A program made the position numbers and the translations under genes. From assembly GCA_965223265.1 (NCBI GenBank), contig OZ244999.1, forward strand, positions 3,840,001 through 3,904,000: a stretch of 64,000 nt of DNA. The letters run 5' to 3'. Source of the DNA: Planctomycetota bacterium (GTDB taxonomy: Bacteria > Planctomycetota > UBA8108 > SXIK01). Of the stretch, positions 10,786 through 64,000 are shown piece after piece. The first letter of the stretch is position 1; the number at the start of each line of letters is the position of its first letter. Below the pieces are notes generated by a model. The model was given only the letters and a program-made list of their open reading frames with translations. It was not told the DNA's origin and made no database searches.

Positions 10786-13700
10786 TCAGTCGATCTCCAA
10801 TCTGCGCAAGCGTTCTCGGGCCAGTTTCGCCTCGTCACTCTTCGGGTACGACTTCACGACGTTGCGATAGTACTTTCCGGCATTTTCCGGATCTTTCAGC
10901 TCTTCGAAGCAGCCCGCCACTTGGAGCACGGCCTTCGACGTCCACTCTTCGTAAGCGAAGCTCGCCTCGACTTTGAGAAACTCAAGAATCGCTTTGCGGA
11001 ACTGTTTGCGGGCGACAAGGCACTGACCAACCTGAAACTGCGCCCGCGCCGCCGTTGGTGTCGAGTTTCCAGCGGCGGCCAGCGAGTATGCATCGATCGC
11101 CTTGTCCAAAGCCCCAAGGTTCTCGTGGGCCCAGCCCTCTCCGAAGTGAGCCCGGTACGTTGCGTCATGATCGGGATAACGCTCACGAAAAGCCGTGAAC
11201 ACCTTCAATGCCACATCGAAATGGCGATCTTCCAATTCGCTTTCACCGTGACCGAGCATGGCAAGTGGAGCCTCCCGGCTCTCCGGGAACGATTCGCTGA
11301 TGCGTTGAAACAGTTTTCCGGCCGACGTCACCTTGTCCTGATCAAGAAGGGTTTTGGCGGCGAGATAGGCCAGTTCCGGGAAGTGGTCGCTCTTGGCGTA
11401 GCGGGCGTGAAATCGCTTGAATGTAGCCAGGAGCTCCTCGTGTTCCTGAAGCTTGTAGTGAGCCCAGCAAAGCCGATACAAAGCACCTTCTTGGTGTTGA
11501 CTGCTTTCAAACCGCGGCGTCTCCATCAACTTCAACAGAAGCGCTCTCGCGTTCTCATAGTTCTTCTGTTCGAACTGCATCTCTGCAAGCTCGAGCTGAA
11601 CGACGAAACTGAACTCCGCGTGCCGTTTGTCGTCGGCAGACGCTTCCAAGATCGCCAACTGGTCTGCGAGTTCCTGATACGTCTCGACGGCCCTCTCAGG
11701 TCGGTCCATGCCGCGGTAGCACCATGCAATCTCGTACAAAATGCGACTCATTTCGCTCGGCGAATTCGGCGCTTCCTTTAGTTTCCAAAGCATCGCCAGA
11801 GCCTCTTCGTGCTGCCCTGTCTTGGAAAGCTGGCTCGCTTCCTCAAGCAGCACTAGGCTGAGGCGGGAGTCGTCGGGGTTCCGTTCGCGAAACTGAGCCA
11901 GCACCTCCTGTGCTTCGTCACCCCTGCCACTGGCTCGAAGACTCAACGCCAGTCGGTACTGAGCATCGGCGGCAACAGCGCTGTCCGGATAGCGATCAAC
12001 GATGCGACGAAAGTATTTTACGGCACGTTCATGCTCTTCCTGCTCGGAGCGATAGACGCCCACAAAAAAGAGCGCTCGCGGTAAGAACTTTGACTTGGGG
12101 TGGTTCTTGATCAGCCGGCGGAATCCTTTCTCGGCGAGGCTCTTCTTCCCCTCCTCGTGAGCGGTCTGACCAATTTCCAAGAGCACCTGATCACTGTATG
12201 GGTGGTCCGGATCAGTCTTCAGAATCTCCAGGTAAACGCTGCGCGCCGCCGACCAATTTTGCGCCAACTGGTGACTGTGTGCGATCTTGAAATGCGCGTC
12301 CCGTTTCTGCGCCAGAAGCTCACTTCGAACAGACTCTGGCGCGTTTTCGACGGCCTCGAGGAACGCGGACAACCGCTCGATAGCGACGTCATATTGTCCC
12401 AATTGGTAAGCCGCGTCGCCGCGATAATACGCGACCGAGAGCAGCTGAGGATCTGCACTGTTCACCGGCACTTCGACGCTGGTGAGATAGTCGGTCGCCT
12501 CCTGATACTTTTCCTGGAGGTGCAGGGCCTGCCCGACTCTCACTCGTGCGCGCGCGATCGCCGCGGCGTCGACGCTCGCAGTGGCGCTCGACACGAATCC
12601 CTCATAGGCCTGGATCGCGCCAGCCAAGTCACCGGCGGCGAATCGATTCTCTCCCGCCAACTGCTGAACGTCCGGCAAGTATGCGCTCTCTCCGTAGCGT
12701 GCAAGAAACTGAGAGCAGGCCTCGCCCGCCGCGGTGTAGTCTCCAGCGCGGTGCAGACAGAACGCCAGCAGATAGAGCGCATGATCGGCTTTCGACGTCG
12801 AGCCGAAATCCTGCAGAAAAGATCGAAAGGAACTCGCTGCGCCAGAGTAATCTTCAGCTGCAACAGCATTCAGACCGAATTGAAGCTCGAGATCGGCGCG
12901 CAGCGCGCTGCGGGGAAACTTCTGAACAGCAGCTTCAACAACCGCCGTCGCGGCCTCGATCTTGCCGTTCGACTTGAGCAGTCGTGAGAGGACGAGCGAG
13001 GCGTGATCACCGACACTCTCCGAGTCAACGAGCTCGCCCAAAAGATCCTCTGCCGCATCGCCTTTGCCGAGCTCGATGCGGGCTCGCGCGAGCAGAAGAA
13101 GCGCCTGATGTTGGTGCTCGCCGTTGCCCTTCGACCCTATGGTCTTCGCCAGAACCTGCTCGGCCTGTTCGAACTTCCCGGCCCGAAAAAGAGCGCTGCC
13201 AAGCCCGAAGCTTCCCAGCTCACGGAAGACACTATTTTCGGAGTCGGCCAGGCTCTCGAAGAGCTTGCTGGCACCAGCCTCATCACCCTGCTCGGCAAGC
13301 ATGAGGGCGACCATGTACCGGGCGTCTTCTGCATGGTGGCCGCTGGACTGTGCGACGTGGCGAAAGATCTTCAACGCGTCGGCAGCACCCTCTTCACCCT
13401 TCTGTGCAAGGTGGTAGAGACTCATGCCGAGATAAAACGTGGCGCGATCGTATTCGTCGCCCTGCGGCTTTGACGTCAAGAACTCCTTGTAGCGGTCGAC
13501 CGCGTCGTGGAACTCCTTCAGGTGATAGCGGCACTCCGCTAGGCCGAGCGTAGCGATCGCCACGTGTTTTTGTTTGGCACCGCTTCTCACGACCCATTCG
13601 AAGGCCTTCTCCGCGCCGCGGTAGTCTTGCAACCTGAGCAGAGCTTGCCCCAGAACCCGTGTCGCCTCGGCCTTCACTTTGAAGCGCTTCGATGAAAGAG

Positions 13701-48437: not shown

Positions 48438-48929
48438 TCAAGACCCGTGCGCGATCAAGGCGTAAAGCTGACGCGTCGTCGTGCCGTACGCCGTTTCGTA
48501 TTCGAGCCGCAGGTGGACAGGCAGCATCCGGTACGTCATCGAGCAATCATCGTTGTCCAAACCGCCGCGACCGTCAAGATCGAGAACCGGACCGAACCCG
48601 GCAGGGATCGCCAGTTCATTCACAAACGTCGCAATGCGGATGCGTGCGTCCTGGCCGTCGGCTCCTTGTAGCTGCGACACCAACACCTCGACCCCGTTGT
48701 AATTCTGATGCAGCGTGCGAAAGTCTTCGCGCTTCAGCAGCTCCAACACGTCCTCAAAAGCGACGCGCGCGGTATCGATTTCGCTCGACGCATTGGCACC
48801 GGCGGAATTGGTGTGCGCTAGAGCGAACACGCTCATGACACCGACAACGTACACGGCAACCGCAACAGCGAACTCGAGCAGAAGCGCGCCGGAGCGATTG
48901 TGGAGCGCGTCTCGTCTTATGGAGCGCAT
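48438..48929 (-). CDS. Minor pilin / pseudopilin (PilV-like)
   Basis: Class III signal 'RSG|ALLLE' followed by a hydrophobic helix. Confidence 0.72.
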   Translation of the reverse strand: MRSIRRDALHNRSGALLLEFAVAVAVYVVGVMSVFALAHTNSAGANASSEIDTARVAFEDVLELLKREDFRTLHQNYNGVEVLVSQLQGADGQDARIRIATFVNELAIPAGFGPVLDLDGRGGLDNDDCSMTYRMLPVHLRLEYETAYGTTTRQLYALIAHGS

Positions 48930-48931
48930 CG

Positions 48932-50347
48932 TCAAAACTCCCGGTAGTGGAGTGGGCTATAGCTGCGCACGTTGCCGCGAAACCACTCGAGGGTCTGCGA
49001 TGAGTACCTGATCTCGGTGACGCCGGCGACGGCTTGGATCAAGCTGCCATCGACCATGAGGCCACCGACCATTTGAATGTCGCCCGCGGCAGCGTCGAAC
49101 GCCACGTCGCCGCGCACGATGAGGACTCCTTCAAACTGAAACGGACCGCTGAGCGACACCGAGCCGTTGACAACCAAAATGCCCTTGCCGCCTTCCCCGG
49201 AAAGCTGGAGATCGCCGTCGGAGTAGATGATCGGCACGGCGATCTGCTCGAGCGTATCGGTGGTGCCGCCCATGAGAGTGCCGTCGGTCTCCTCGTAGAC
49301 TCCGGATGTGTCGGTACTCGTGGTGAAGAGGGAGCTCGAACGGAGCGTAGAGTCAGTCGTTGACTGCGTCGAGGTCGAAGTCGACGTCGAGTCGGTGCTT
49401 GATCTCGTGGTCGACATTGATAGGAAACCACTCGAGTCCGATGTCGTCGTATCGTGGGAGCCGCCCGACCAAGATGAAATCATTCCCGAAAGAAGAAGGC
49501 TGTAGTCTTGAGAGATGTTGAGATCGGTGTAGGAACCGGGAACCAGATGTCGCGTCGCCTTACCGCGAAAGGTGTCGAAGACCGGACCAAAAACATCGCC
49601 GTCGATTTCACCCACCGAAGGTGTTCCGTCGGCTCCCTCGATCGTCAGCTGACCGGCCTGCGACGTCTGCGACAGAAGCGCCAGCAGATGATCTCCTGGA
49701 GACTCGCCGGCGTTCGTCGTCAAACCGGGTAACGTTTCGCCGCCGCCCGACGTCGAGCTGTCGTTGCCGCTCAGGAGCAAGTTGGCACCGGCGAGCACCT
49801 CAAGCTGCATCTCCGGGTTGACGTACGTTGCTGACGGCAGCGCGAATCGCTCCAGCTCATTGCCGTAGACGCGCTCGAGAGTCACGGTCTCGGTTGCGGT
49901 GAAGCACGTCGAGACGATCCGAAACACGCCGCTGTACGGCGTCGGGTAGACACTGACGAGAAGACGCGCGCCGATCTCCGGCGGTCCGATCGGCACCGGA
50001 GCCAGGTTTGGCTCGCCCGGAGTCGGGATTCCATCGCCCTCGCCGGAGTCGAGCGATCCCGCGATACGGTCGGCGCCGATGTCGTCGTCGCTCGTCCAGT
50101 CGATCGTGCCGACGTTGCCTTGATTGCCGGAGACGTAGTTGTCGAAGTCGTGCGCCGCGAGGGTGAAGCCGGACTCCGCGTACATTCTCAGGTCGAATCG
50201 CGTCGCGTAGGCGTGCGCTTGGCGCAGTCCGTCGTGCATGAGTGATGCCTGCAAAGTCACGAGAGTGACCATCGCCATGACGACGACAAGCGTCAGGGCT
50301 AAAACGCTGCCGCGTTCACCGGTGGTCTCTCGAATGACGCTCCGCAC
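48932..50347 (-). CDS. PilX/GspK-like minor pilin with Ser/Thr-rich insertion
   Basis: 'ERG|SVLALTLVVV' without Glu5, 'YAESG', C-terminal 'GILVVNG...FEGVLIVRG' beta-helix. Confidence 0.75.
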   Translation of the reverse strand: MRSVIRETTGERGSVLALTLVVVMAMVTLVTLQASLMHDGLRQAHAYATRFDLRMYAESGFTLAAHDFDNYVSGNQGNVGTIDWTSDDDIGADRIAGSLDSGEGDGIPTPGEPNLAPVPIGPPEIGARLLVSVYPTPYSGVFRIVSTCFTATETVTLERVYGNELERFALPSATYVNPEMQLEVLAGANLLLSGNDSSTSGGGETLPGLTTNAGESPGDHLLALLSQTSQAGQLTIEGADGTPSVGEIDGDVFGPVFDTFRGKATRHLVPGSYTDLNISQDYSLLLSGMISSWSGGSHDTTTSDSSGFLSMSTTRSSTDSTSTSTSTQSTTDSTLRSSSLFTTSTDTSGVYEETDGTLMGGTTDTLEQIAVPIIYSDGDLQLSGEGGKGILVVNGSVSLSGPFQFEGVLIVRGDVAFDAAAGDIQMVGGLMVDGSLIQAVAGVTEIRYSSQTLEWFRGNVRSYSPLHYREF

Positions 50348-50363
50348 GACTCGTCTGTTCCTT

Positions 50364-50942
50364 TCAATTACGAAAATTCACGGTCACCGTTGAAGACACA
50401 CTGAGCTGGGTCTCCGTGCCCTTCTTGGCAGCGACGTTTGTCACCGACAGCTGTACGGCGTCCGAACCGACGGCGGCGAACGCCGAACGATCCACCGCGA
50501 CCCCAGCGCAGACGACCGCGAATTCTCCGGTCATCAAGTTTCGGCGTACGATCCGGCCGTCGTCGACAATGCCATCGCCATTGTCGTCGGCGCCGTTTAC
50601 AGTTTCGCCCGAGTTCAACCGAATCTCGTAGCTCACCTGGTCCCCAGCAACGGAACCGGTTTCGTCGTACCCGGCTGGGAGCGTCAGCGTCAGCACGCGC
50701 CCTGCATTCTCCACGATGGCGCTGCCGCGCATAGCCCGCCGCACGTCGCTGCTGACACGATCAACCACAATGCGGTTGCGCTCGGCGAGGCGGTTGTGAA
50801 GATCGTTCTCGAGCGATGAGCTCGTCGCCGTCAAAAACGTCGCCACGAGCGGGGCACCCAGCGCAGCGGTCAGCGCCGTATAGAGAGCCACCTCAAATAG
50901 TGTGTGCCCTCTCGACCTGACGCTCATCCGACGCTGTTTCAA
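50364..50942 (-). CDS. Prepilin-type protein (PilW/GspJ-like)
   Basis: 'RG|HTLFEV', 'SSDVRRA', C-terminal 'TVNFRN'. Confidence 0.78.
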   Translation of the reverse strand: MKQRRMSVRSRGHTLFEVALYTALTAALGAPLVATFLTATSSSLENDLHNRLAERNRIVVDRVSSDVRRAMRGSAIVENAGRVLTLTLPAGYDETGSVAGDQVSYEIRLNSGETVNGADDNGDGIVDDGRIVRRNLMTGEFAVVCAGVAVDRSAFAAVGSDAVQLSVTNVAAKKGTETQLSVSSTVTVNFRN

Positions 50943-51020
50943 TGGCGGCGCTCTCTATTCTTGACGAATACCTCGACGAGTTCGAAACCATCAATTGTCC
51001 AGTTTTGGGGCAGTTTCCCG

Positions 51021-51761
51021 CTACCGACGGACCTTTGACGTCGAAGAGTACGATGGATTATCGATGTCGTCAAATCGACTACGTTCTCGCACCCTTTGAC
51101 GCAGCACATTCTCCCAAGCGGTGACGTCTTTCCCGCAGCGCGCGCCCGTGGCACGCTCAAGCGACCTGATGAGGGCACGCTGCGTGGTCTCGTCCTTTTC
51201 CGTTGCGAGGAGCGCGACGAGCGCCTCGAGTCTGACCTTCCAATCGCCCAGAGTCTTGATCGCGAGTTGACGATTCCTCGCGTCGCGTTCGCTCCGCAAG
51301 TAGCGTACGAGCTCAGAAGCCCCAGCGTCGCCGAGCGAGCGTACAGCGCCGACGGCGCTGCGTCGAACGAGTGGTGAGGCGTCCCAAAGGCCCTCAGCAA
51401 CGACCGCGAGATCGTCTTCGACGTTACCCAAATCGCCGAGCACCCTGAGGGCGAAAACCTTTGCGCGAACCCTGCCGCGCCGACTCTCGCGGACAAGAAC
51501 AGTTCGCGATTCAGGATAGGAACGTCTGAGAGTCTCCATCGCACTATGCAGCGTCGCTGCGTCCGACGACGTGTTGAGGACTTCGACTGCCGCGCGGAAA
51601 CGCTTCTCGGCATCTGCCTTGCGCTTCGCGTCCGCGAACGAATCGGCGGCGGTCGCACCGCTCGTCAGAACGCCGATGAGAAAACAACCCATCAAAAAAG
51701 AGCCGATCAATCGGCAGCTGATCGGAGACGATTTTCTGAGTCGGAGGTGCTTCGTTGGCAT
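51021..51761 (-). CDS. Exported HEAT-repeat protein
   Basis: Signal-like 'FLIGVLTSGATAA', 'LWDASPLVRRSAVGAV', 'LERATG...GKD..AW'. Start uncertain. Confidence 0.7.
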   Translation of the reverse strand: MPTKHLRLRKSSPISCRLIGSFLMGCFLIGVLTSGATAADSFADAKRKADAEKRFRAAVEVLNTSSDAATLHSAMETLRRSYPESRTVLVRESRRGRVRAKVFALRVLGDLGNVEDDLAVVAEGLWDASPLVRRSAVGAVRSLGDAGASELVRYLRSERDARNRQLAIKTLGDWKVRLEALVALLATEKDETTQRALIRSLERATGARCGKDVTAWENVLRQRVRERSRFDDIDNPSYSSTSKVRR

Positions 51762-52174
51762 CGACACAAGTTCCAAGGGTTCGAGTCGGAACGGTGGCGC
51801 ATTCCGAAAAAGAGGGCCATTCAAGAATAGGATGGCACGCGCAATGGCGTCAAATCGCGGTGGGAGTGTCTTGCGGGGTGGGGGAATGTGAGAGGAGGAG
51901 GGGGAGGAAACAGAGACAGACCCTACAGTTGCATAAACTTCTCGCCCGAAGACCTCAGAAGCCCTTGTTCTACGGCTCGATCGGCAGTTGGGGGACGTCG
52001 CGGCGAACGTCACGCTTGGTGAGGTTTGTCGATGTGCCGTGTTCTACCAATTCGGACCATCGACCGAACTGGCGTCCGTTGGTGACCCGCGTCCTCCACG
52101 CACGCGCACACGGAGAGGCTGTGAAGGTTTAACACGTGCCGTCAAAACTTGCGCTCCGCACGGTCACCTCCGGA

Positions 52175-58885: not shown

Positions 58886-60205
58886 ATGACACAGAAGACT
58901 CAACGTACCAACCGCCGGAACTTCCTGAAGGCCACGGCGGCCACTGGTGTCGGTTTCTGGATGGGAACCTCCTCTTCTCTATACGCCGCTCCCAAGTCTG
59001 CCAACGAAAAGCTCAACATCGGCGTGATCGGCGCAGGCGGCAAGGGGTACGGCGACATGCGAGGGGTCAGCAGCGAGAACATCGTCGCGCTTTGCGACGT
59101 CGATGAGAGTCGCGCCGCGAAGTCGTTCGCTGACAATCCGAAAGCCAACAAGTACCACGACTACCGCAAGATGCTCGACATGGAGAAGCTCGACGCAGTC
59201 ACCGTGTCGACTCCCGATCATAGCCACGCGCCGGCGAGCGTCCGCGCGATGCAGCTTGGTCTCCATGTCTTCTGCCAGAAGCCGCTGACCTACTCTGTGT
59301 ACGAGGCTCGCTTACTGCGCGATCTAGCACGCAAGTACAACGTCGCGACCCAAATGGGAAATCAAGGCACCTCGAGCAAGGGACTTCGAGAAGGCGTGGA
59401 GGTGATTCAATCCGGAGCCATCGGAAACGTCACGCAGATCCACGTCTGGACAAACCGACCGGTGTGGCCGCAGGGAATTCCGCGTCCGGCCCCGGAGCAA
59501 GTGCCTCCACACCTCAAGTGGAATCTTTGGCTTGGGCCGGCCGAGGAGCGCCTCTACAACAAAGCCTACTGCCCATTCAGCTGGAGAGGTTGGGTGGACT
59601 TCGGCACTGGCGCCCTCGGCGACATGGCGTGCCACACCGCAAACCTGCCGTTCATGGCCTTGCAGCTCGAGCACCCGACGCGCGTCGAGGTGCTGGATCT
59701 CAAGGGCAACTTGGGCGACAGCTATCCGACGGGCTCCAAGATCCAGTACGACTTCCCGGCGCGCGGTAATCTGCCAGCCCTGAAGTACTACTGGTACGAT
59801 GGCGGCATGCGCCCGCCGGCCGAGCTGACCGAACCGTTCGGTGAAATCACTTCGAGTGGATCACTGATGGTGGGGGACGGCGGCAGCATGTACTCGCCGG
59901 GCGACTACGGCACGGAATACGTCCTGGCGCCAACCGAGAAGTTCGCTGAGTACAAGCCACCGACCCCGACACTACCGCGTTCTCCCGGCCACTACAAAGA
60001 GTGGCTCATTGCCTGTAAAGGCGGCGAGCGCGCCATGTCGAACTTCGACTACGCGGCCCTGCTCACCGAGACGATTCTGCTCGGCAACGTCGCTATGCGG
60101 GCTGGCCGCCCGATCGAATGGGACGGCCCGCGACTGCGCGTCAAGAACGATCCCCGCGCGGATCAGTTCATCACTCGGACATACCGCAAGGGCTTCGAAG
60201 TGTGA
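58886..60205 (+). CDS. Tat-exported Gfo/Idh/MocA oxidoreductase
   Basis: 'NRRNFLK', 'IGAGGKG', 'STPDHSH', 'FCQKPL', 'GALGDMACH'; SD AGGAG before ATG 58886. Confidence 0.93.
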   Translation: MTQKTQRTNRRNFLKATAATGVGFWMGTSSSLYAAPKSANEKLNIGVIGAGGKGYGDMRGVSSENIVALCDVDESRAAKSFADNPKANKYHDYRKMLDMEKLDAVTVSTPDHSHAPASVRAMQLGLHVFCQKPLTYSVYEARLLRDLARKYNVATQMGNQGTSSKGLREGVEVIQSGAIGNVTQIHVWTNRPVWPQGIPRPAPEQVPPHLKWNLWLGPAEERLYNKAYCPFSWRGWVDFGTGALGDMACHTANLPFMALQLEHPTRVEVLDLKGNLGDSYPTGSKIQYDFPARGNLPALKYYWYDGGMRPPAELTEPFGEITSSGSLMVGDGGSMYSPGDYGTEYVLAPTEKFAEYKPPTPTLPRSPGHYKEWLIACKGGERAMSNFDYAALLTETILLGNVAMRAGRPIEWDGPRLRVKNDPRADQFITRTYRKGFEV

Positions 60206-60236
60206 TACCGCGCTGTTGAGACTGAAATTCTGAAAC

Positions 60237-60280
60237 AAAAAAGGACGGAGTCATCCCTCGTAGGTGACTCCGTCCTTTTT
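60237..60280. terminator. Bidirectional intrinsic terminator
   Basis: AAAAAAGGACGGAGTCA...TGACTCCGTCCTTTTT between convergent genes. Confidence 0.88.
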
Positions 60281-60327
60281 CGTTTGCGCGTCCGCGTTAG
60301 AATGCTCCGCGATGCGCCGAATCGGCG

Positions 60328-61398
60328 TCAGACCGACGGCTGGCCCTCGCGCGCCTTCGCCTCGATCTCGTCGGCCGTGGAGAACTCGTTCCAGTACTCC
60401 TCGGGCATATCGAGTGCAATCTTCAGGGCACCGTTCGAACCCGCATACTGAGGCTCCTCGACGGTCGTGACCTTGCCACCGCCGTACTCCTTGAGAGCCT
60501 CCTCGATCGCCAAACCAAGGCCCTTGAGCTGACTGCCTCCTCCACCGAGGAGGATGTTGTCGCGCATTTTCGCCTGGAACTCAGGGTCGTACGTGGCAAC
60601 AAGATCTTGCAGCTTCTCGACCGTCGGCGGCACGATGGTGTAGCACGCTTCGTAGATCAAATCGGTGACGTCGAATTCCTGCGGCTTACCAGCCACCGGC
60701 ATCGTTACCGTCGCCCGATCCATGTTGCGACTCACGGAGGAGTATTTCTCTTTGAAAGTCCGCGCCATGTTGATCGTGAGCTGGGCGTCGGGATGCTTCT
60801 CTTGGATCAGCTTCAGTAGCGTCTCGTCGACCTTGTCGCCTGCGACTTCATGGCTGCGCTGATCATCTGGACCAGGCATTGTGCCGTGGACACGGCAGAG
60901 GTCAGTAGTACCGGCACCCAGATCGATAACCAGGGTGTCGTCGAGGAAGTCAAGACCGTAAGCGACGGCGAACGGCTCCGAGCAAATGATCACGCTGTCT
61001 GTGCAGTTCGAGGAGACTTCGAGGATCGTCGACTTACCTTCTACGCTCGCCTCAGCGGGCGCGCCGATGACCGCAAAGAGTGTGCTCCCCGCGGGAGCCT
61101 GCGCGAGGCCAATCGCGTGCTCGAGCAGGTCCTTGAGCGCGCGCTTGCGCTCGGATGAGTCCGTCGCACCTTTCACCTTGATGGATCCGCCGGCGAGCGG
61201 GCGCACCAGGTTCAGAGACATCCGGTTCTCGACGGCTTCCTTGCCGTAGATGACGTCTCGACCACCGAACTTCTTCTTGGCGACGTGATCCTTCGGGTAG
61301 CCGACGTACGACCACACGGTCTCACGTACGCCAGTCGACGTCGTAATCGACGTTCGACTCGTACCAAGATCAATTCCCAAGTAAATCGTCTCTGACAT
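60328..61398 (-). CDS. mamK: Actin-like ATPase, MamK family
   Basis: 'LGIDLGTS', 'VGYPKD', 'VIGAPAEAS', 'SEPFAVAYGLD', 'DLGAGTTDLC..HGTMP..DDQ', 'AGKP..FDVT', 'GGGSQLKGL', 'GALKIA.DMPEEYW'. These match MamK rather than MreB signatures. SD GGAGG. Confidence 0.82.
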   Translation of the reverse strand: MSETIYLGIDLGTSRTSITTSTGVRETVWSYVGYPKDHVAKKKFGGRDVIYGKEAVENRMSLNLVRPLAGGSIKVKGATDSSERKRALKDLLEHAIGLAQAPAGSTLFAVIGAPAEASVEGKSTILEVSSNCTDSVIICSEPFAVAYGLDFLDDTLVIDLGAGTTDLCRVHGTMPGPDDQRSHEVAGDKVDETLLKLIQEKHPDAQLTINMARTFKEKYSSVSRNMDRATVTMPVAGKPQEFDVTDLIYEACYTIVPPTVEKLQDLVATYDPEFQAKMRDNILLGGGGSQLKGLGLAIEEALKEYGGGKVTTVEEPQYAGSNGALKIALDMPEEYWNEFSTADEIEAKAREGQPSV

Positions 61399-61609
61399 AA
61401 ACCGGTCCTCCAGCGGGGTTGAACTACGCGTCGACGGTGATTGCGCGAGACGTTGCGCTTTCCCTCTACGGAGAAGAATGCCATCAAACCCCAGACTGTC
61501 ACCCCGACCTGGCGATAATCTCGCCCTTCATGCCCGATCCGGAGTTAGCTCGTGCCGACGCGGGCGTACCGAAGATCGAAAGTGGAAGCAGCTTACGCTT
61601 GACCTTCAC

Positions 61610-63553
61610 TCACTCGGCGTTGGTCATCTCGCGGCTGGATTGCTTCTGCTCTTCGCCAGACAATTGCGAGGAGGTGTCTGCATCTTGGACATCCTCTGCG
61701 GCGGGGGTGTCGTCGGTAGGAGCATCCGACGCAGTCGCCGACTCAGCGTCCGCCTGAGGCGCTGGCTTGGCGTCCGATCCGGGATCGGCGTCGTGGCCAC
61801 GAGCTTCGATCTGCGTGCGAATCTCTTTATTCTGTTGAAAGATATCCTTGAGAAGAGCCAGCTTGCGCTCACGGTTGGCGTCGCTGTCGAGAGTGCTTGC
61901 CACCACGTTGCGCACCTGAGCGCCGGCTTGCTCCAGTGCTTGGGCGCGCTGCTTCGCAACGTCCCGCTCGCGCTGTGCATCTTCAAGCGTTTTCGACAGT
62001 CGGCCGACTTTGCGCTCGAGCAAGGCGATTTGATCCGACTGCGCATCCTGCGCTTTGGCGCTGATCTTGTCGCGTTCCTCGTCGAGCAAGGTCGACACGA
62101 CCCGGCGCATCTCGTCGGCAAGCTCCGCGCTGATCCCGTTCTCTACAACGGCCCGCCGCATCAGACGCTGTAGGCGCGTCTCGATTTCTATCATTCCGGC
62201 GTCTGAAACGGTGAACTGATCGGCGCTGACGACTCGCTGCCGTTCCTCTTCGAGAAGCGCCTGAGCTCGTTCGAGCTGACTCTTCAGCACGTTCGACTGC
62301 TCTTCCAGCCCACGTTTCTCTGCCTGGAAGGCCTCGAGTCTGTCCTTGAAGCCGACTTCGGCCTCTTCAAGAAGCCGTTTTCGTTCCTTGTCATCGAGTG
62401 AGCGGCTCAACCCCTCAACAGCCTCTGAAACGGCATCATCGATGAACGACTTCACGGTCGACTCGTTGAGGACCCGCACTTTGTCGTGCCGCGCGGCGAG
62501 CTCCGAAGCGCGCACCATCTTGGCCTTGAGGCGCAGCGACTTGGTCACATCGCTCCCCTTCAACGCCTGCTGCAGGTTCGCACGATCGCTGCGTGGAGCA
62601 TCCCCCTTGACCATGTGCGAAAACCGGAAGCTCTTCGTCGGAGTCGCGACGATGCTGTCGGCGATCGGCGCCGATGACACTTGGTCCGGCATCACCAGTA
62701 CGCTAAAACCATCGCTCTCAGGCTCAGGCGTCGCGGCTGGTACGGCAGACGACGCTGTCGGACCTGGGGCAACCGGCGTCGCGAAGTCCTCTTCAGACAA
62801 CTGCGGAACCGTGATCGGAAGAAGCGCCTCGGGAGACTCTACGGAAAACTCAGACGTCGACGGCGCCGCGGCGTCCCCGCTGCTAGCGCTACCTTCAAGG
62901 ATCGGCACTACGAATCGCTGCAACCAGTCGTTGAGGCGATCCTCTCCCAGTGGGTCTGAGTGAATCCACTCAAGCCGAACTTGAGTCGCGACGCTTTCCT
63001 CATGTTCGTCGCTGTTCGTGTCTGAAGATAGCGCGCCCGCCGAAGTGATCGTGGCACCTTTCGGGGCGATCGTTTCGTCGACGACGTCCTCTGGAGACGC
63101 GTCGCCTGTCGCGGCAGAGATTTCAGCGTCACCGACAGCACGACCCTCCGGCGCCGTTGCAACGGAGGACGGTTCACTCGAAACGGTCGACTCATCGTTC
63201 GACTCTGGATCGACGGCGTCTTTCTCGACCTCCTCCTCCGCGAGCGCTTCGACTTTGTCTTGCTCGACGAGATCGAGGCTATCGTGCTCAACAGCGGAGG
63301 CGCCCGCGGCTTCAGAAACTCCGTCGCGAGCGATCGCCTCGACGACCGTCTTTGCGTAGAGCGACACTCGACGGCCGGACGCCAGCTCGACCACCACATC
63401 GAGGTAGACCTTTTCCGGCAGAACCTCCGGTTCGAAGAGTCGCGCGCCGGAGACACTTAGCTCCTTGACATCGAGCCGAACGTCGCCGTTCTCCGCGTGC
63501 TCGAGCAGACACCAGCACGCGCCGGGACTCAAGGTGTAGCAAGGATCTTTCAA
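61610..63553 (-). CDS. Acidic low-complexity and coiled-coil protein with split PilZ-like N-terminal domain
   Basis: 'VKELSVSGARL' and later 'VRLEW......DRLNDWL' separated by an E/D/S/A-rich insert; long heptad-rich C-terminal region; acidic tail. Confidence 0.7.
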   Translation of the reverse strand: MKDPCYTLSPGACWCLLEHAENGDVRLDVKELSVSGARLFEPEVLPEKVYLDVVVELASGRRVSLYAKTVVEAIARDGVSEAAGASAVEHDSLDLVEQDKVEALAEEEVEKDAVDPESNDESTVSSEPSSVATAPEGRAVGDAEISAATGDASPEDVVDETIAPKGATITSAGALSSDTNSDEHEESVATQVRLEWIHSDPLGEDRLNDWLQRFVVPILEGSASSGDAAAPSTSEFSVESPEALLPITVPQLSEEDFATPVAPGPTASSAVPAATPEPESDGFSVLVMPDQVSSAPIADSIVATPTKSFRFSHMVKGDAPRSDRANLQQALKGSDVTKSLRLKAKMVRASELAARHDKVRVLNESTVKSFIDDAVSEAVEGLSRSLDDKERKRLLEEAEVGFKDRLEAFQAEKRGLEEQSNVLKSQLERAQALLEEERQRVVSADQFTVSDAGMIEIETRLQRLMRRAVVENGISAELADEMRRVVSTLLDEERDKISAKAQDAQSDQIALLERKVGRLSKTLEDAQRERDVAKQRAQALEQAGAQVRNVVASTLDSDANRERKLALLKDIFQQNKEIRTQIEARGHDADPGSDAKPAPQADAESATASDAPTDDTPAAEDVQDADTSSQLSGEEQKQSSREMTNAE

Positions 63554-63648
63554 TGCAATCCTCTTGACGCATTCTTTTCACCGCTCAGCCGCTCGACGCT
63601 TCGAACGTGGCGGACAGGCGGCAACGACTGACGCTTTGACGGCATCAA

Positions 63649-63677
63649 AATATAGAATGGTGGAGTGCTCGTCGCAA
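63649..63677 (-). promoter_or_regulatory. Putative sigma-70 promoter for the coiled-coil/mamK-like unit
   Basis: Minus strand TTGCGA-17 bp-TATATT about 95 bp upstream of the start. Confidence 0.55.
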
Positions 63678-63890
63678 ATTGAGCCCCGACCCGCCTGCCG
63701 CGCCAAACTTTGTCGGAACGACGCGCCCCCGGGCACGATCTCTGCGTGGTAGAGAGACGCTGCGGTGCGCGGGATCGACCCCGGAGCGCAACACCGTCGC
63801 CGAGATGCTGGCGCTTTCCGGAACGTCCGCCCAAGCCTCGCACAACGTCACACCAAAGTGGGTGTGGAGCGCCGCGAAGTGTCGGCGATG

Positions 63891-64000
63891 TCAGCCCGAT
63901 AGGCTGCCGAGGAGTTCGGTCATCTCACTGACAGCTCTCTCGTCTCCGACCGCGCGCGCCACCACGACGCCGCGCTCGAGAACTTCTCGGGCGGCGTCGA
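63891..64000 (-). CDS. C-terminal end of a probable TPR-like helical protein (partial)
   Basis: Manual translation ...DAAREVLERGVVVARAVGDERAVSEMTELLGSLSG*; stop at 63891-63893. Confidence 0.55.
   Translation of the reverse strand, partial: DAAREVLERGVVVARAVGDERAVSEMTELLGSLSG

Follow-up and report, generated by a model that had tools for sequence, protein, structure and literature searches.

The 64-kb window analyzed here (G000:C1:3840001-3904000) is part of the genome of a Planctomycetota bacterium (G000; a single contig of 9.18 Mb with a marker-gene completeness of 91.65%). Near the end of the window, two co-oriented open reading frames (ORFs) on the minus strand encode a MamK-family actin-like ATPase and, directly upstream of it, a larger partner protein (Table 1). 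The most probable explanation for the locus as a whole, read as a two-gene operon, is that it specifies a conserved cytoskeletal machine unconnected with magnetosomes, in which the actin is served by a dedicated adaptor encoded upstream. Both ORFs lie, co-oriented, where a sequence-only reading of the window had placed them, and all five of the MamK-type segments quoted in that reading are present in the translation of the 356-amino-acid (aa) actin: VGYPKD (residues 32-37), SEPFAVAYGLD (140-150), GTMPGPDDQ (172-180), AGKPQEFDVT (236-245) and MPEEYW (331-336).

The partner ORF has an in-frame stop nine codons 5' of its TTG start. A promoter and a strong terminator had been thought to bracket the pair, and a candidate for each was located: a sigma-70-like site 5' of the partner gene (63677-63649), and a hairpin with a perfect 11-bp stem and a T-run after it (approximately 60233-60275) between the actin stop codon and a convergent oxidoreductase gene. 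The promoter is a consensus match only, from a region (60000-64000) in which one such site was counted and 0.4 were expected. A scan of the spacer between the two genes gave no promoter-like site; GGAGGA is found there at 61406-61411, 7 nt 5' of the actin ATG. The terminator-like site reported by the scan tool is a smaller hairpin (60259-60240). Because it is placed between convergent genes, the terminator is probably bidirectional.

Table 1. Features of the gene pair, in window coordinates. Residue numbers refer to the partner protein; pLDDT, predicted local distance difference test.
Feature	Position	Strand	Details and basis
Sigma-70-like promoter candidate	63649..63677	-	TTGCGA, 17-nt spacer, TATATT; 9/12 matches; 5' of partner gene
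Partner gene, 647 aa, TTG start	61610..63553	-	PilZ-fold head, disordered linker, coiled coil, terminal helix; alignments and predicted fold
PilZ-fold head, first part (residues 1-77, beta strands)	63323..63553	-	pLDDT 86-97; structural matches to PilZ
Acidic disordered insert in PilZ head (residues 78-185)	62999..63322	-	pLDDT <50; lineage-specific
PilZ-fold head, last strand and closing helix (residues 186-224)	62882..62998	-	Strand 190-197, helix 201-223; pLDDT ~95
Disordered linker (residues 225-328)	62570..62881	-	pLDDT <50; no conserved columns
Conserved C-terminal domain (residues 330-587)	61793..62566	-	~70-aa head, long coiled-coil helices, terminal helix
Predicted actin-binding element (residues 547-585, helix 559-584)	61799..61915	-	Interface of complex model, and conservation
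Intergenic spacer, 211 nt	61399..61609	-	Sequence read directly
MamK-family actin-like ATPase, 356 aa, ATG start	60328..61398	-	Profile scores, solved relatives, intact ATPase motifs
Intrinsic terminator	60233..60280	-	A-run, stem GGACGGAGTCA, 11-nt loop, stem TGACTCCGTCC, then TTTTTTGTTT

Classification of the actin

The window actin scored 392.2 bits against the NCBIfam model for MamK (NF040964), under the curated cut-off of 400, compared with 199.8 bits for BeeR (cut-off 530) and 60.3 and 50.5 bits for two MreB models (cut-offs 293 and 365.75, respectively). Its top Pfam match was MreB_Mbl (67.8 bits), and ParM-type Pfam domains remained below their cut-offs (ParM_N, 21.8 vs 27.4; Alp7A_like_C, 21.1 vs 22). 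The closest solved structures were 5jyg, 5ljv and 5ljw (best E 1.8e-76), which we take to be structures of MamK; the next relative was 8r2n (E 8.9e-37), presumably BeeR, with the MreB structures far behind (4.6e-8). The proposal that the gene encodes a MamK-type ATPase was upheld by the MamK score and these solved relatives at the level of the broad family. The ATPase motifs are intact (GIDLGTS, residues 8-14; E141-P142; DLGAGTTD, 159-166; GGGGS, 285-289), and G8, D10, G12, T13, E141, P142, D159, G161, G163, T164, D166 and G286-288 do not vary among nine diverse actins. A protein of this kind would be expected to form filaments by ATP-dependent polymerization.

Reference MamKs came from a scan of genome contigs for a back-translated MamK motif, which collected 16 loci, three of them (L033, L043 and L045) chance matches that contain no actin. 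The window actin is 38.1-39.7% identical to ten MamKs of Magnetospirillum type, from Terasakiella and from related bacteria. Scores against the NCBIfam MamK model fall into tiers, with magnetosome MamKs at 508-549 bits, the ten references among them at 521-549, and the planctomycete orthologues and paralogues at 381.5-423.4 bits, straddling the cut-off. When a Magnetospirillum MamK was aligned as the lead sequence, all planctomycete groups were about equally distant from it (36-41% identity). By these sequence comparisons, the actin is a borderline member of the broad MamK family and stands outside the magnetosome tier.

It could alternatively be supposed that the actin is a second MreB-type cell-shape protein and that the gene upstream is an unrelated neighbor. 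Public records name close homologues 'rod shape-determining protein MreB', in keeping with the top Pfam match, but the two NCBIfam MreB scores are far below their cut-offs and the source genome has a separate MreB (G000:C1:3936990-3938162; 433 bits, cut-off 293). That gene is adjoined by ORFs with the size and placement of mreC, mreD, PBP2 and rodA (an assignment from size and placement only). The unrelated-neighbor part of the proposal is contradicted by the strict synteny and the complex prediction described below, and the explanation as a whole was considered very improbable. Just 5' of mreB there is also a 203-aa ORF composed of 50% Asp and Glu (L005:2672-3283, minus strand; G000:C1, approximately 3938227-3938838).

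Six actin-like genes were found in the source genome: MreB, the window actin, a volactin-like gene (see below) and three more at G000:C1:5231375-5232409, 3174409-3175389 and 8738008-8738862 (L002, L003 and L004). Among the last three, one is BeeR-like (377 bits, cut-off 530) and two are divergent (142-155 bits for BeeR and 121-123 bits for MamK). The ORF 5' of L003 looked PilZ-like by eye, which Pfam did not confirm, and that 5' of L002 matches no family. Longer actins also occur: 20 of 150 listed representatives are at least 450 aa long, and up to 1232 aa, with the actin domain mostly C-terminal. The metagenomic MamK-like actins P0257, P0260, P0262, P0269, P0274 and P0278 (707-1232 aa) have N-terminal extensions of 375-900 aa. 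Such extensions were considered as gene-fusion evidence for the pairing and rejected, hmmsearch having found no match between them and the partner profiles; no Pfam domain was found in the six extensions scanned. In one relative (G012:C125:10799-11938), the orthologous actin matches as two pieces in different frames (10799-11485 and 11492-11938), through either a frameshift or an assembly error.

The partner protein and its predicted contact with the actin

No Pfam or NCBIfam family covers the partner, and its homologues are named 'hypothetical protein' in the source databases, save two of 120 listed that JGI names 'AcrR family transcriptional regulator'. An AlphaFold2 model built with 60 homologues comprises a beta-barrel split by the acidic insert, a disordered linker, long helices within residues 364-542 (among them 388-446 and 476-542), a separate terminal helix and a disordered tail. 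The barrel has the PilZ fold: VIA-align gave Z 13.4 to the PilZ domain of YcgR (5y6g_A; root-mean-square deviation 4.6, 122 residues aligned) and Z 12.8, 11.9 and 11.8 to further structures (YcgR, MrkH and Alg44), with matched ranges extending to about residue 220, and the top Foldseek matches were all PilZ domains (best E 7.6e-4). The Pfam PilZ profile (PF07238) does not match the window partner even at E up to 1; it matches nine of the 60 homologues (best E 1.9e-5).

The canonical motifs with which PilZ domains bind cyclic di-guanosine monophosphate (c-di-GMP) are RxxxR and D/NxSxxG. RxxxR is absent from the window partner, in which the upstream stop codon and a first strand that begins at residue 5 leave no room for it, and the second motif reads E-L-S-V-S-G, i.e., ExSxxG rather than D/NxSxxG. 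Canonical c-di-GMP binding by this head is therefore unlikely.

The partner had been described from its sequence as an acidic, low-complexity coiled-coil protein. The acidity (D+E 20%, K+R 11%) and the long helices were both borne out, but acidity and low complexity are not conserved: the acidic insert is present in the window protein and absent from the other 12 of 13 orthologues, and some orthologues have basic, Lys/Pro-rich linkers. The sole part conserved in all orthologues is the C-terminal domain, which is entirely helical. Across the 60 homologues, K564, N575 and R579 are invariant, L565, L567 and K569 are conserved in at least 90%, and a consensus tail, 'PDDxPWE...GVKxI...PPPL', is found in most.

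Complex prediction, a check proposed with the sequence-only reading, pointed to binding between the two proteins. When the actin (39-row alignment) was modeled together with residues 330-605 of the partner (60 rows), the alignments being unpaired, the median ipSAE was 0.74 (0.75, 0.74 and 0.74 in the individual runs), compared with 0.01 for the best of three controls. The mark applied to this score was met by 58 of 80 solved complexes and two of 110 mismatched pairs, counts that are only approximate because our own alignments were used. The runs agreed in at least 51% of contacts, with a partner pLDDT of at least 68. On the partner side, the interface is formed by residues 547-585, which include the terminal helix and are the most conserved of the protein; the motif of this helix recurs in the partners of paralogous actins. 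On the actin side, it is formed by residues 119-127, 137-153, 172-174 and 322-339, i.e., the region of the SEPF helix and the C-terminal helix, and includes the conserved residues Y147, D330, P332, W336 and F339. These segments would border the hydrophobic cleft between subdomains IA and IIA. Within a ParM filament, the IA/IIA pocket accommodates the subunit that follows in the strand, and the ParR of R1 is reported to bind the barbed end of monomers and filaments (PMC6599009, PMC12270681); the predicted contact resembles that of ParR on ParM.

The location of this interface bears on whether the partner is a cargo adaptor or a regulator of the actin. A regulator would sequester monomers, cap a filament end or nucleate filaments through the IA/IIA cleft, with the PilZ domain as its signal input, by analogy with WH2-type or capping proteins acting on eukaryotic actin. 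Such a role would suit an interface that covers the intra-strand contact surface of actin-like filaments (PMC6599009, PMC12270681), a chromosomal ParR has been reported to act as a depolymerization factor (PMC12270681), and PilZ domains are typical signal-input modules. However, a helical domain of approximately 200 aa and a long linker exceed the needs of a sequestering peptide, and the RxxxR motif for c-di-GMP is missing from the window protein. Regulation was judged the less likely role by a wide measure, albeit one that is not mutually exclusive with that of a cargo adaptor.

The same contact could be accommodated by a chromosomal DNA segregation system of ParMRC type, in which the partner would bind DNA through its 70-aa head and ride the growing filament ends. 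The resemblance to the binding mode of ParR is in its favor, as are the two 'AcrR'-named members among the 120 listed homologues, weak sub-threshold matches to the MerR-type NmlR model (four of 13 orthologues) and to KfrA_N (one of 60 homologues), and the lack of FtsZ in the source genome, where no match was found by a search that succeeded in 13 of 14 control genomes. Against it, Pfam and NCBIfam scans detected no helix-turn-helix (HTH), TetR or ribbon-helix-helix (RHH) family in the partner and its homologues, the two 'AcrR'-named members gave no HTH or RHH match even at E up to 10, and the KfrA_N match falls on the coiled-coil part of that profile. A fold search with residues 330-605, in which the first 46 residues were barely tested, returned generic coiled coils only (best Z 10.5), and the ParM Pfam domains are below cut-off in the actin. 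On this profile and fold evidence, DNA segregation was rated as improbable, below regulation. A search of the ESM Atlas gave a best score of 0.83, under the level counted as a lead.

Conservation of the pair and the magnetosome question

Conservation of the neighborhood, which the sequence-only reading had named as a further check, was followed in 41 related genomes, source genome included, and in a phylum-wide sample of 151 evenly chosen Planctomycetota genomes, each at least 85% complete. The partner is present in 25 of the 41 relatives, in every one of them immediately 5' of an actin with 62-100% identity and in the same orientation; three of these genomes have two such pairs. The remaining 16 have no partner, and no actin match of at least 62% identity save a 46-aa fragment in one of them (G032). 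In the phylum-wide sample, the partner profile matched in 47 genomes and the actin (E <=1e-30) in 54. Actin matches of at least 62% identity occurred in 16 of the 151 genomes, with the partner adjacent, upstream and on the same strand in 18 of 18 cases, among them all seven genomes of a family outside the window's class (f17). As related genomes are not independent, these synteny counts describe a pattern and carry no statistical test. Judged from these alignments and gene orders, the pair is a widespread and ancient module, conserved across the phylum. The suggestion of a cytoskeletal module serving something other than magnetosomes is supported and gains strength from the conservation of the pair and the predicted binding of its two proteins; 'orphan' does not fit a module so widespread and ancient.

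More distant actins are organized similarly. Upstream of the actins of a second MamK-like group (45-57% identity), and of two actins from Phycisphaerae, is a gene for 220-340 aa in the same orientation; eight of these upstream genes, when aligned, proved homologous to the conserved domain of the partner (hhalign 97.4%, E 9.7e-12, 182 columns). A further 27 weak matches to the partner profile lie away from MamK-like actins; 18 of them are located no more than 2 kb upstream, and on the same strand, of a gene of the Volactin family, which is named after a cell-shape protein of Haloferax volcanii (PMC10869688). Volactin-family genes were found in 63 of the 151 sampled genomes. The source genome has such a pair (G000:C1:6316617-6318779, minus strand; L058:1118-3279), in which the volactin-like gene (L058:1118-2194) scores 287.7 bits against Volactin (PF25216; cut-off 35) and the gene directly 5' of it (L058:2191-3279) encodes a 362-aa coiled coil that has partner residues 331-401 in common with the window protein (hhalign 88%). 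Because of the volactin-like pairs, three actin-like families in the phylum can be described as preceded by a coiled-coil protein with this head. The volactin-like gene is closely followed by a long simple-sequence repeat (L058:404-1104; G000:C1, approximately 6315900-6316600), which reads as His-Ala, Thr-Pro, Arg-Leu or Cys-Val, depending on the frame.

The absence of magnetosome genes near the pair, reported in the sequence-only reading, was confirmed: the ten neighbors on its two flanks have housekeeping roles. Downstream, the pair is followed by two genes for Gfo/Idh/MocA oxidoreductases, and past the window end there follow an FHA-Ser/Thr kinase, RsmG, a Clp-type AAA protein, a queuosine mannosyltransferase, LpxD, a TPR protein and an FG-GAP protein; no magnetosome gene cluster was seen among the ORFs to approximately 56 kb past that end. 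Models of magnetosome proteins, which may be tuned to Alphaproteobacteria, were run against the whole 9.18-Mb genome and gave no match for MamI, a best score of 22 bits for MamP (cut-off 300) and a best score of 69.7 bits for MamQ (cut-off 250), a level that control genomes also reach. The MamI and MamP models exceeded their cut-offs in five of five magnetotactic genomes, and the partner profile matched in none of the five. Four other NCBIfam entries tried as models (NF040962, NF040967, NF040968 and NF040969) proved to be unrelated families.

These results bear on the suggestion that the locus is the edge or remnant of a magnetosome cluster and its actin a true MamK. The MamK score is just 8 bits short of the cut-off, and there are reports of magnetosome clusters in Planctomycetes from metagenomes (PMC12748827). 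However, housekeeping genes make up the flanks over tens of kilobases, MamI, MamP and MamQ are below cut-off throughout the genome while the controls succeeded for MamI and MamP, true MamKs score well above the window actin, and the same pair recurs in 25 of 41 relatives. Even allowing for the possible tuning of the models and a genome that is 91.65% complete, a magnetosome island continuing beyond the window was regarded as the least credible of the explanations considered, and the idea was dropped. By its flanks and by the MamI, MamP and MamQ models, the locus is unrelated to magnetosomes. Two actins from Phycisphaera and Phycisphaeraceae metagenome-assembled genomes (L034 and L039) have the exact MamK motif GTVPGPEDQ and score 408.5 and 414.9 bits, over the MamK cut-off; each stands behind a partner-type gene, and not behind an ORF of the kind found at the MamJ position.

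A candidate actin-adaptor machine and its relatives

The scheme that best accounts for these observations is one in which the downstream gene would supply an ATP-dependent, filament-forming actin and the upstream gene its dedicated adaptor. The adaptor would begin with a PilZ-fold head devoid of the canonical c-di-GMP motif, from which a disordered linker leads to a long coiled coil, through which the protein probably dimerizes, and to a short amphipathic terminal helix. This helix would sit in the hydrophobic IA/IIA cleft, which is the face used for contacts between subunits within a strand and the face at which ParR engages ParM; the targets of the adaptor would therefore be monomers or filament ends of the barbed type. 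Through the adaptor, growth or anchoring of the filament would be linked to the ligands of the PilZ head and of the conserved 70-aa head. Family membership of the actin, its ATPase motifs, synteny and co-occurrence of the genes, the PilZ fold, the lack of magnetosome genes and the passed complex prediction are directly supported; polymerization, dimerization, end-binding and the adaptor role are inferred.

Several points weigh against this scheme. It is computational throughout. The placement of the actin, made from MAFFT identities and tiers of hidden Markov model scores, describes relatedness and not branching order. The complex model supports binding without showing it, its score being the model's own confidence, and homology of the SEPF and C-terminal helices is the basis for locating the interface in the IA/IIA cleft. 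A complex of ParM with a ParR peptide has been solved, and the pass may for that reason reflect in part a learned binding mode. Because the PilZ head is absent from five of 13 orthologue ORFs as called, it may be dispensable, and the consensus tail is missing from the window partner and its closest relative (G001). Family and fold searches identified no cargo, membrane anchor or DNA-binding element in the partner. Among 52 matches to paralogue-type actins (45-57% identity), 21 have an adjacent match to the orthologue-derived partner profile and 31 have no detectable partner match, the profile being weak for this group.

The proposed machine can be compared with several known systems. It shares a broad actin family with MamK-MamJ, MamK providing the best model and the best solved relatives, and in the mamJ-mamK layout (L044) the gene directly upstream of the actin likewise encodes a non-enzymatic partner. 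It differs in that the window actin is only 38-40% identical to MamK, at 392 bits, and the source genome has no Mam model match above cut-off. The analogy to the acidic adaptors MamJ and LimJ drawn in the sequence-only reading was not sustained: the partner shows no homology to the ORF occupying the MamJ position in a Magnetospirillum operon (L044:1421-2887, taken as MamJ from position only; hhalign probability 0.06%), and its acidity is lineage-specific, not being conserved among its orthologues. ParM-ParR is alike in combining an actin-like filament with a dedicated adaptor encoded alongside, and in the terminal helix predicted to occupy the barbed-end cleft (PMC6599009). In contrast to ParR, the window adaptor is encoded upstream, is far larger, and has a PilZ head and a coiled coil with no ribbon-helix-helix detected; the locus is chromosomal and conserved across the phylum, and its actin has no ParM-specific domain above cut-off.

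Other MamK-related actins are known from bacteria without magnetosomes. BeeR, a three-stranded tubular actin of Verrucomicrobiota, is one such protein from non-magnetotactic bacteria of the Planctomycetes-Verrucomicrobia-Chlamydiae group (PMC11929497). Its hallmark is a disordered N-terminal domain (PMC11929497), whereas GIDLGTS begins at residue 8 of the window actin; the latter also scores 199.8 bits against the BeeR cut-off of 530, and the source genome has a separate BeeR-like gene. As to a partner for BeeR, the terms operon, neighbor and coiled have no occurrence in passages of PMC11929497. Saltatorellin, from Saltatorellota, is also MamK-like, belongs to a planctomycete-related lineage without magnetosomes and forms filaments in heterologous hosts (bioRxiv 10.1101/817700). 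Compared by description only, it differs in that the part of that source covered describes no partner gene. In Desulfovibrio magneticus RS-1, the actins MamK and Mad28 work with coiled-coil Mad proteins (PMC12748827); by description only, these differ from the window partner in being encoded in a magnetosome cluster and acting on magnetosome chains (PMC12748827). The PilZ adaptors YcgR, MrkH and Alg44 have the same head fold (Z 11.8-13.4); the window head, in contrast, lacks RxxxR, has ExSxxG for D/NxSxxG, is fused to a coiled coil and is paired with an actin. Planctobacterial 'MamK actin-ancestors' are mentioned in passing in PMC7203096.

A wider reading, offered tentatively and as possible rather than probable, is that the partner belongs to a phylum-wide family of coiled-coil 'actin companions' with a head of approximately 70 aa, which diversified together with at least three actin families to give ParMR-like machines, MamK being an offshoot. 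If so, the terminal helix of the companion would grip the filament end in each pair, i.e., in the two MamK-like groups and in the volactin-like proteins, and such machines would serve to place the contents of the cell or to power budding division in FtsZ-less Planctomycetota. The PilZ head of the MamK-like branch would tie the machine to second-messenger or envelope signaling, and the MamK of magnetosomes would be one specialized offshoot of an older actin-companion system.

Division without FtsZ, and cell organization generally, are open questions in Planctomycetota, and canonical division genes are reported to be dispensable in one planctomycete model species (PMC6952346). A conserved actin-adaptor operon would be a concrete and testable candidate part, and the predicted interface supplies residues for mutagenesis. 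The annotation of MamK-like genes also needs rereading, as the family is labeled MreB in public records while mamK serves as a marker gene by which magnetotactic bacteria are recognized (bioRxiv 10.1101/682252); because their scores straddle the NCBIfam MamK cut-off, planctomycete homologues can be mislabeled either way. MamK-like actins outside magnetotactic bacteria are already in print, and a bacterial actin with a dedicated adaptor is a known theme. Literature searches found neither a link between a PilZ fold and an actin filament nor the partner family or the conservation of the pair, and the family is undescribed in the literature searched. The one paper in which PilZ, actin-like and Planctomycet occurred together concerns, in the part covered, the genome of a magnetotactic bacterium, and a 2025 review of the phylum (PMC12673574) has no mention of MamK, cytoskeleton, PilZ or c-di-GMP.

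Elsewhere in the window, four co-oriented ORFs lie on the minus strand at 48438-52013. Three of the four have hydrophobic, prepilin-like N-termini (e.g., 'GHTLFEVAL'), and the run may be a pseudopilin cluster.

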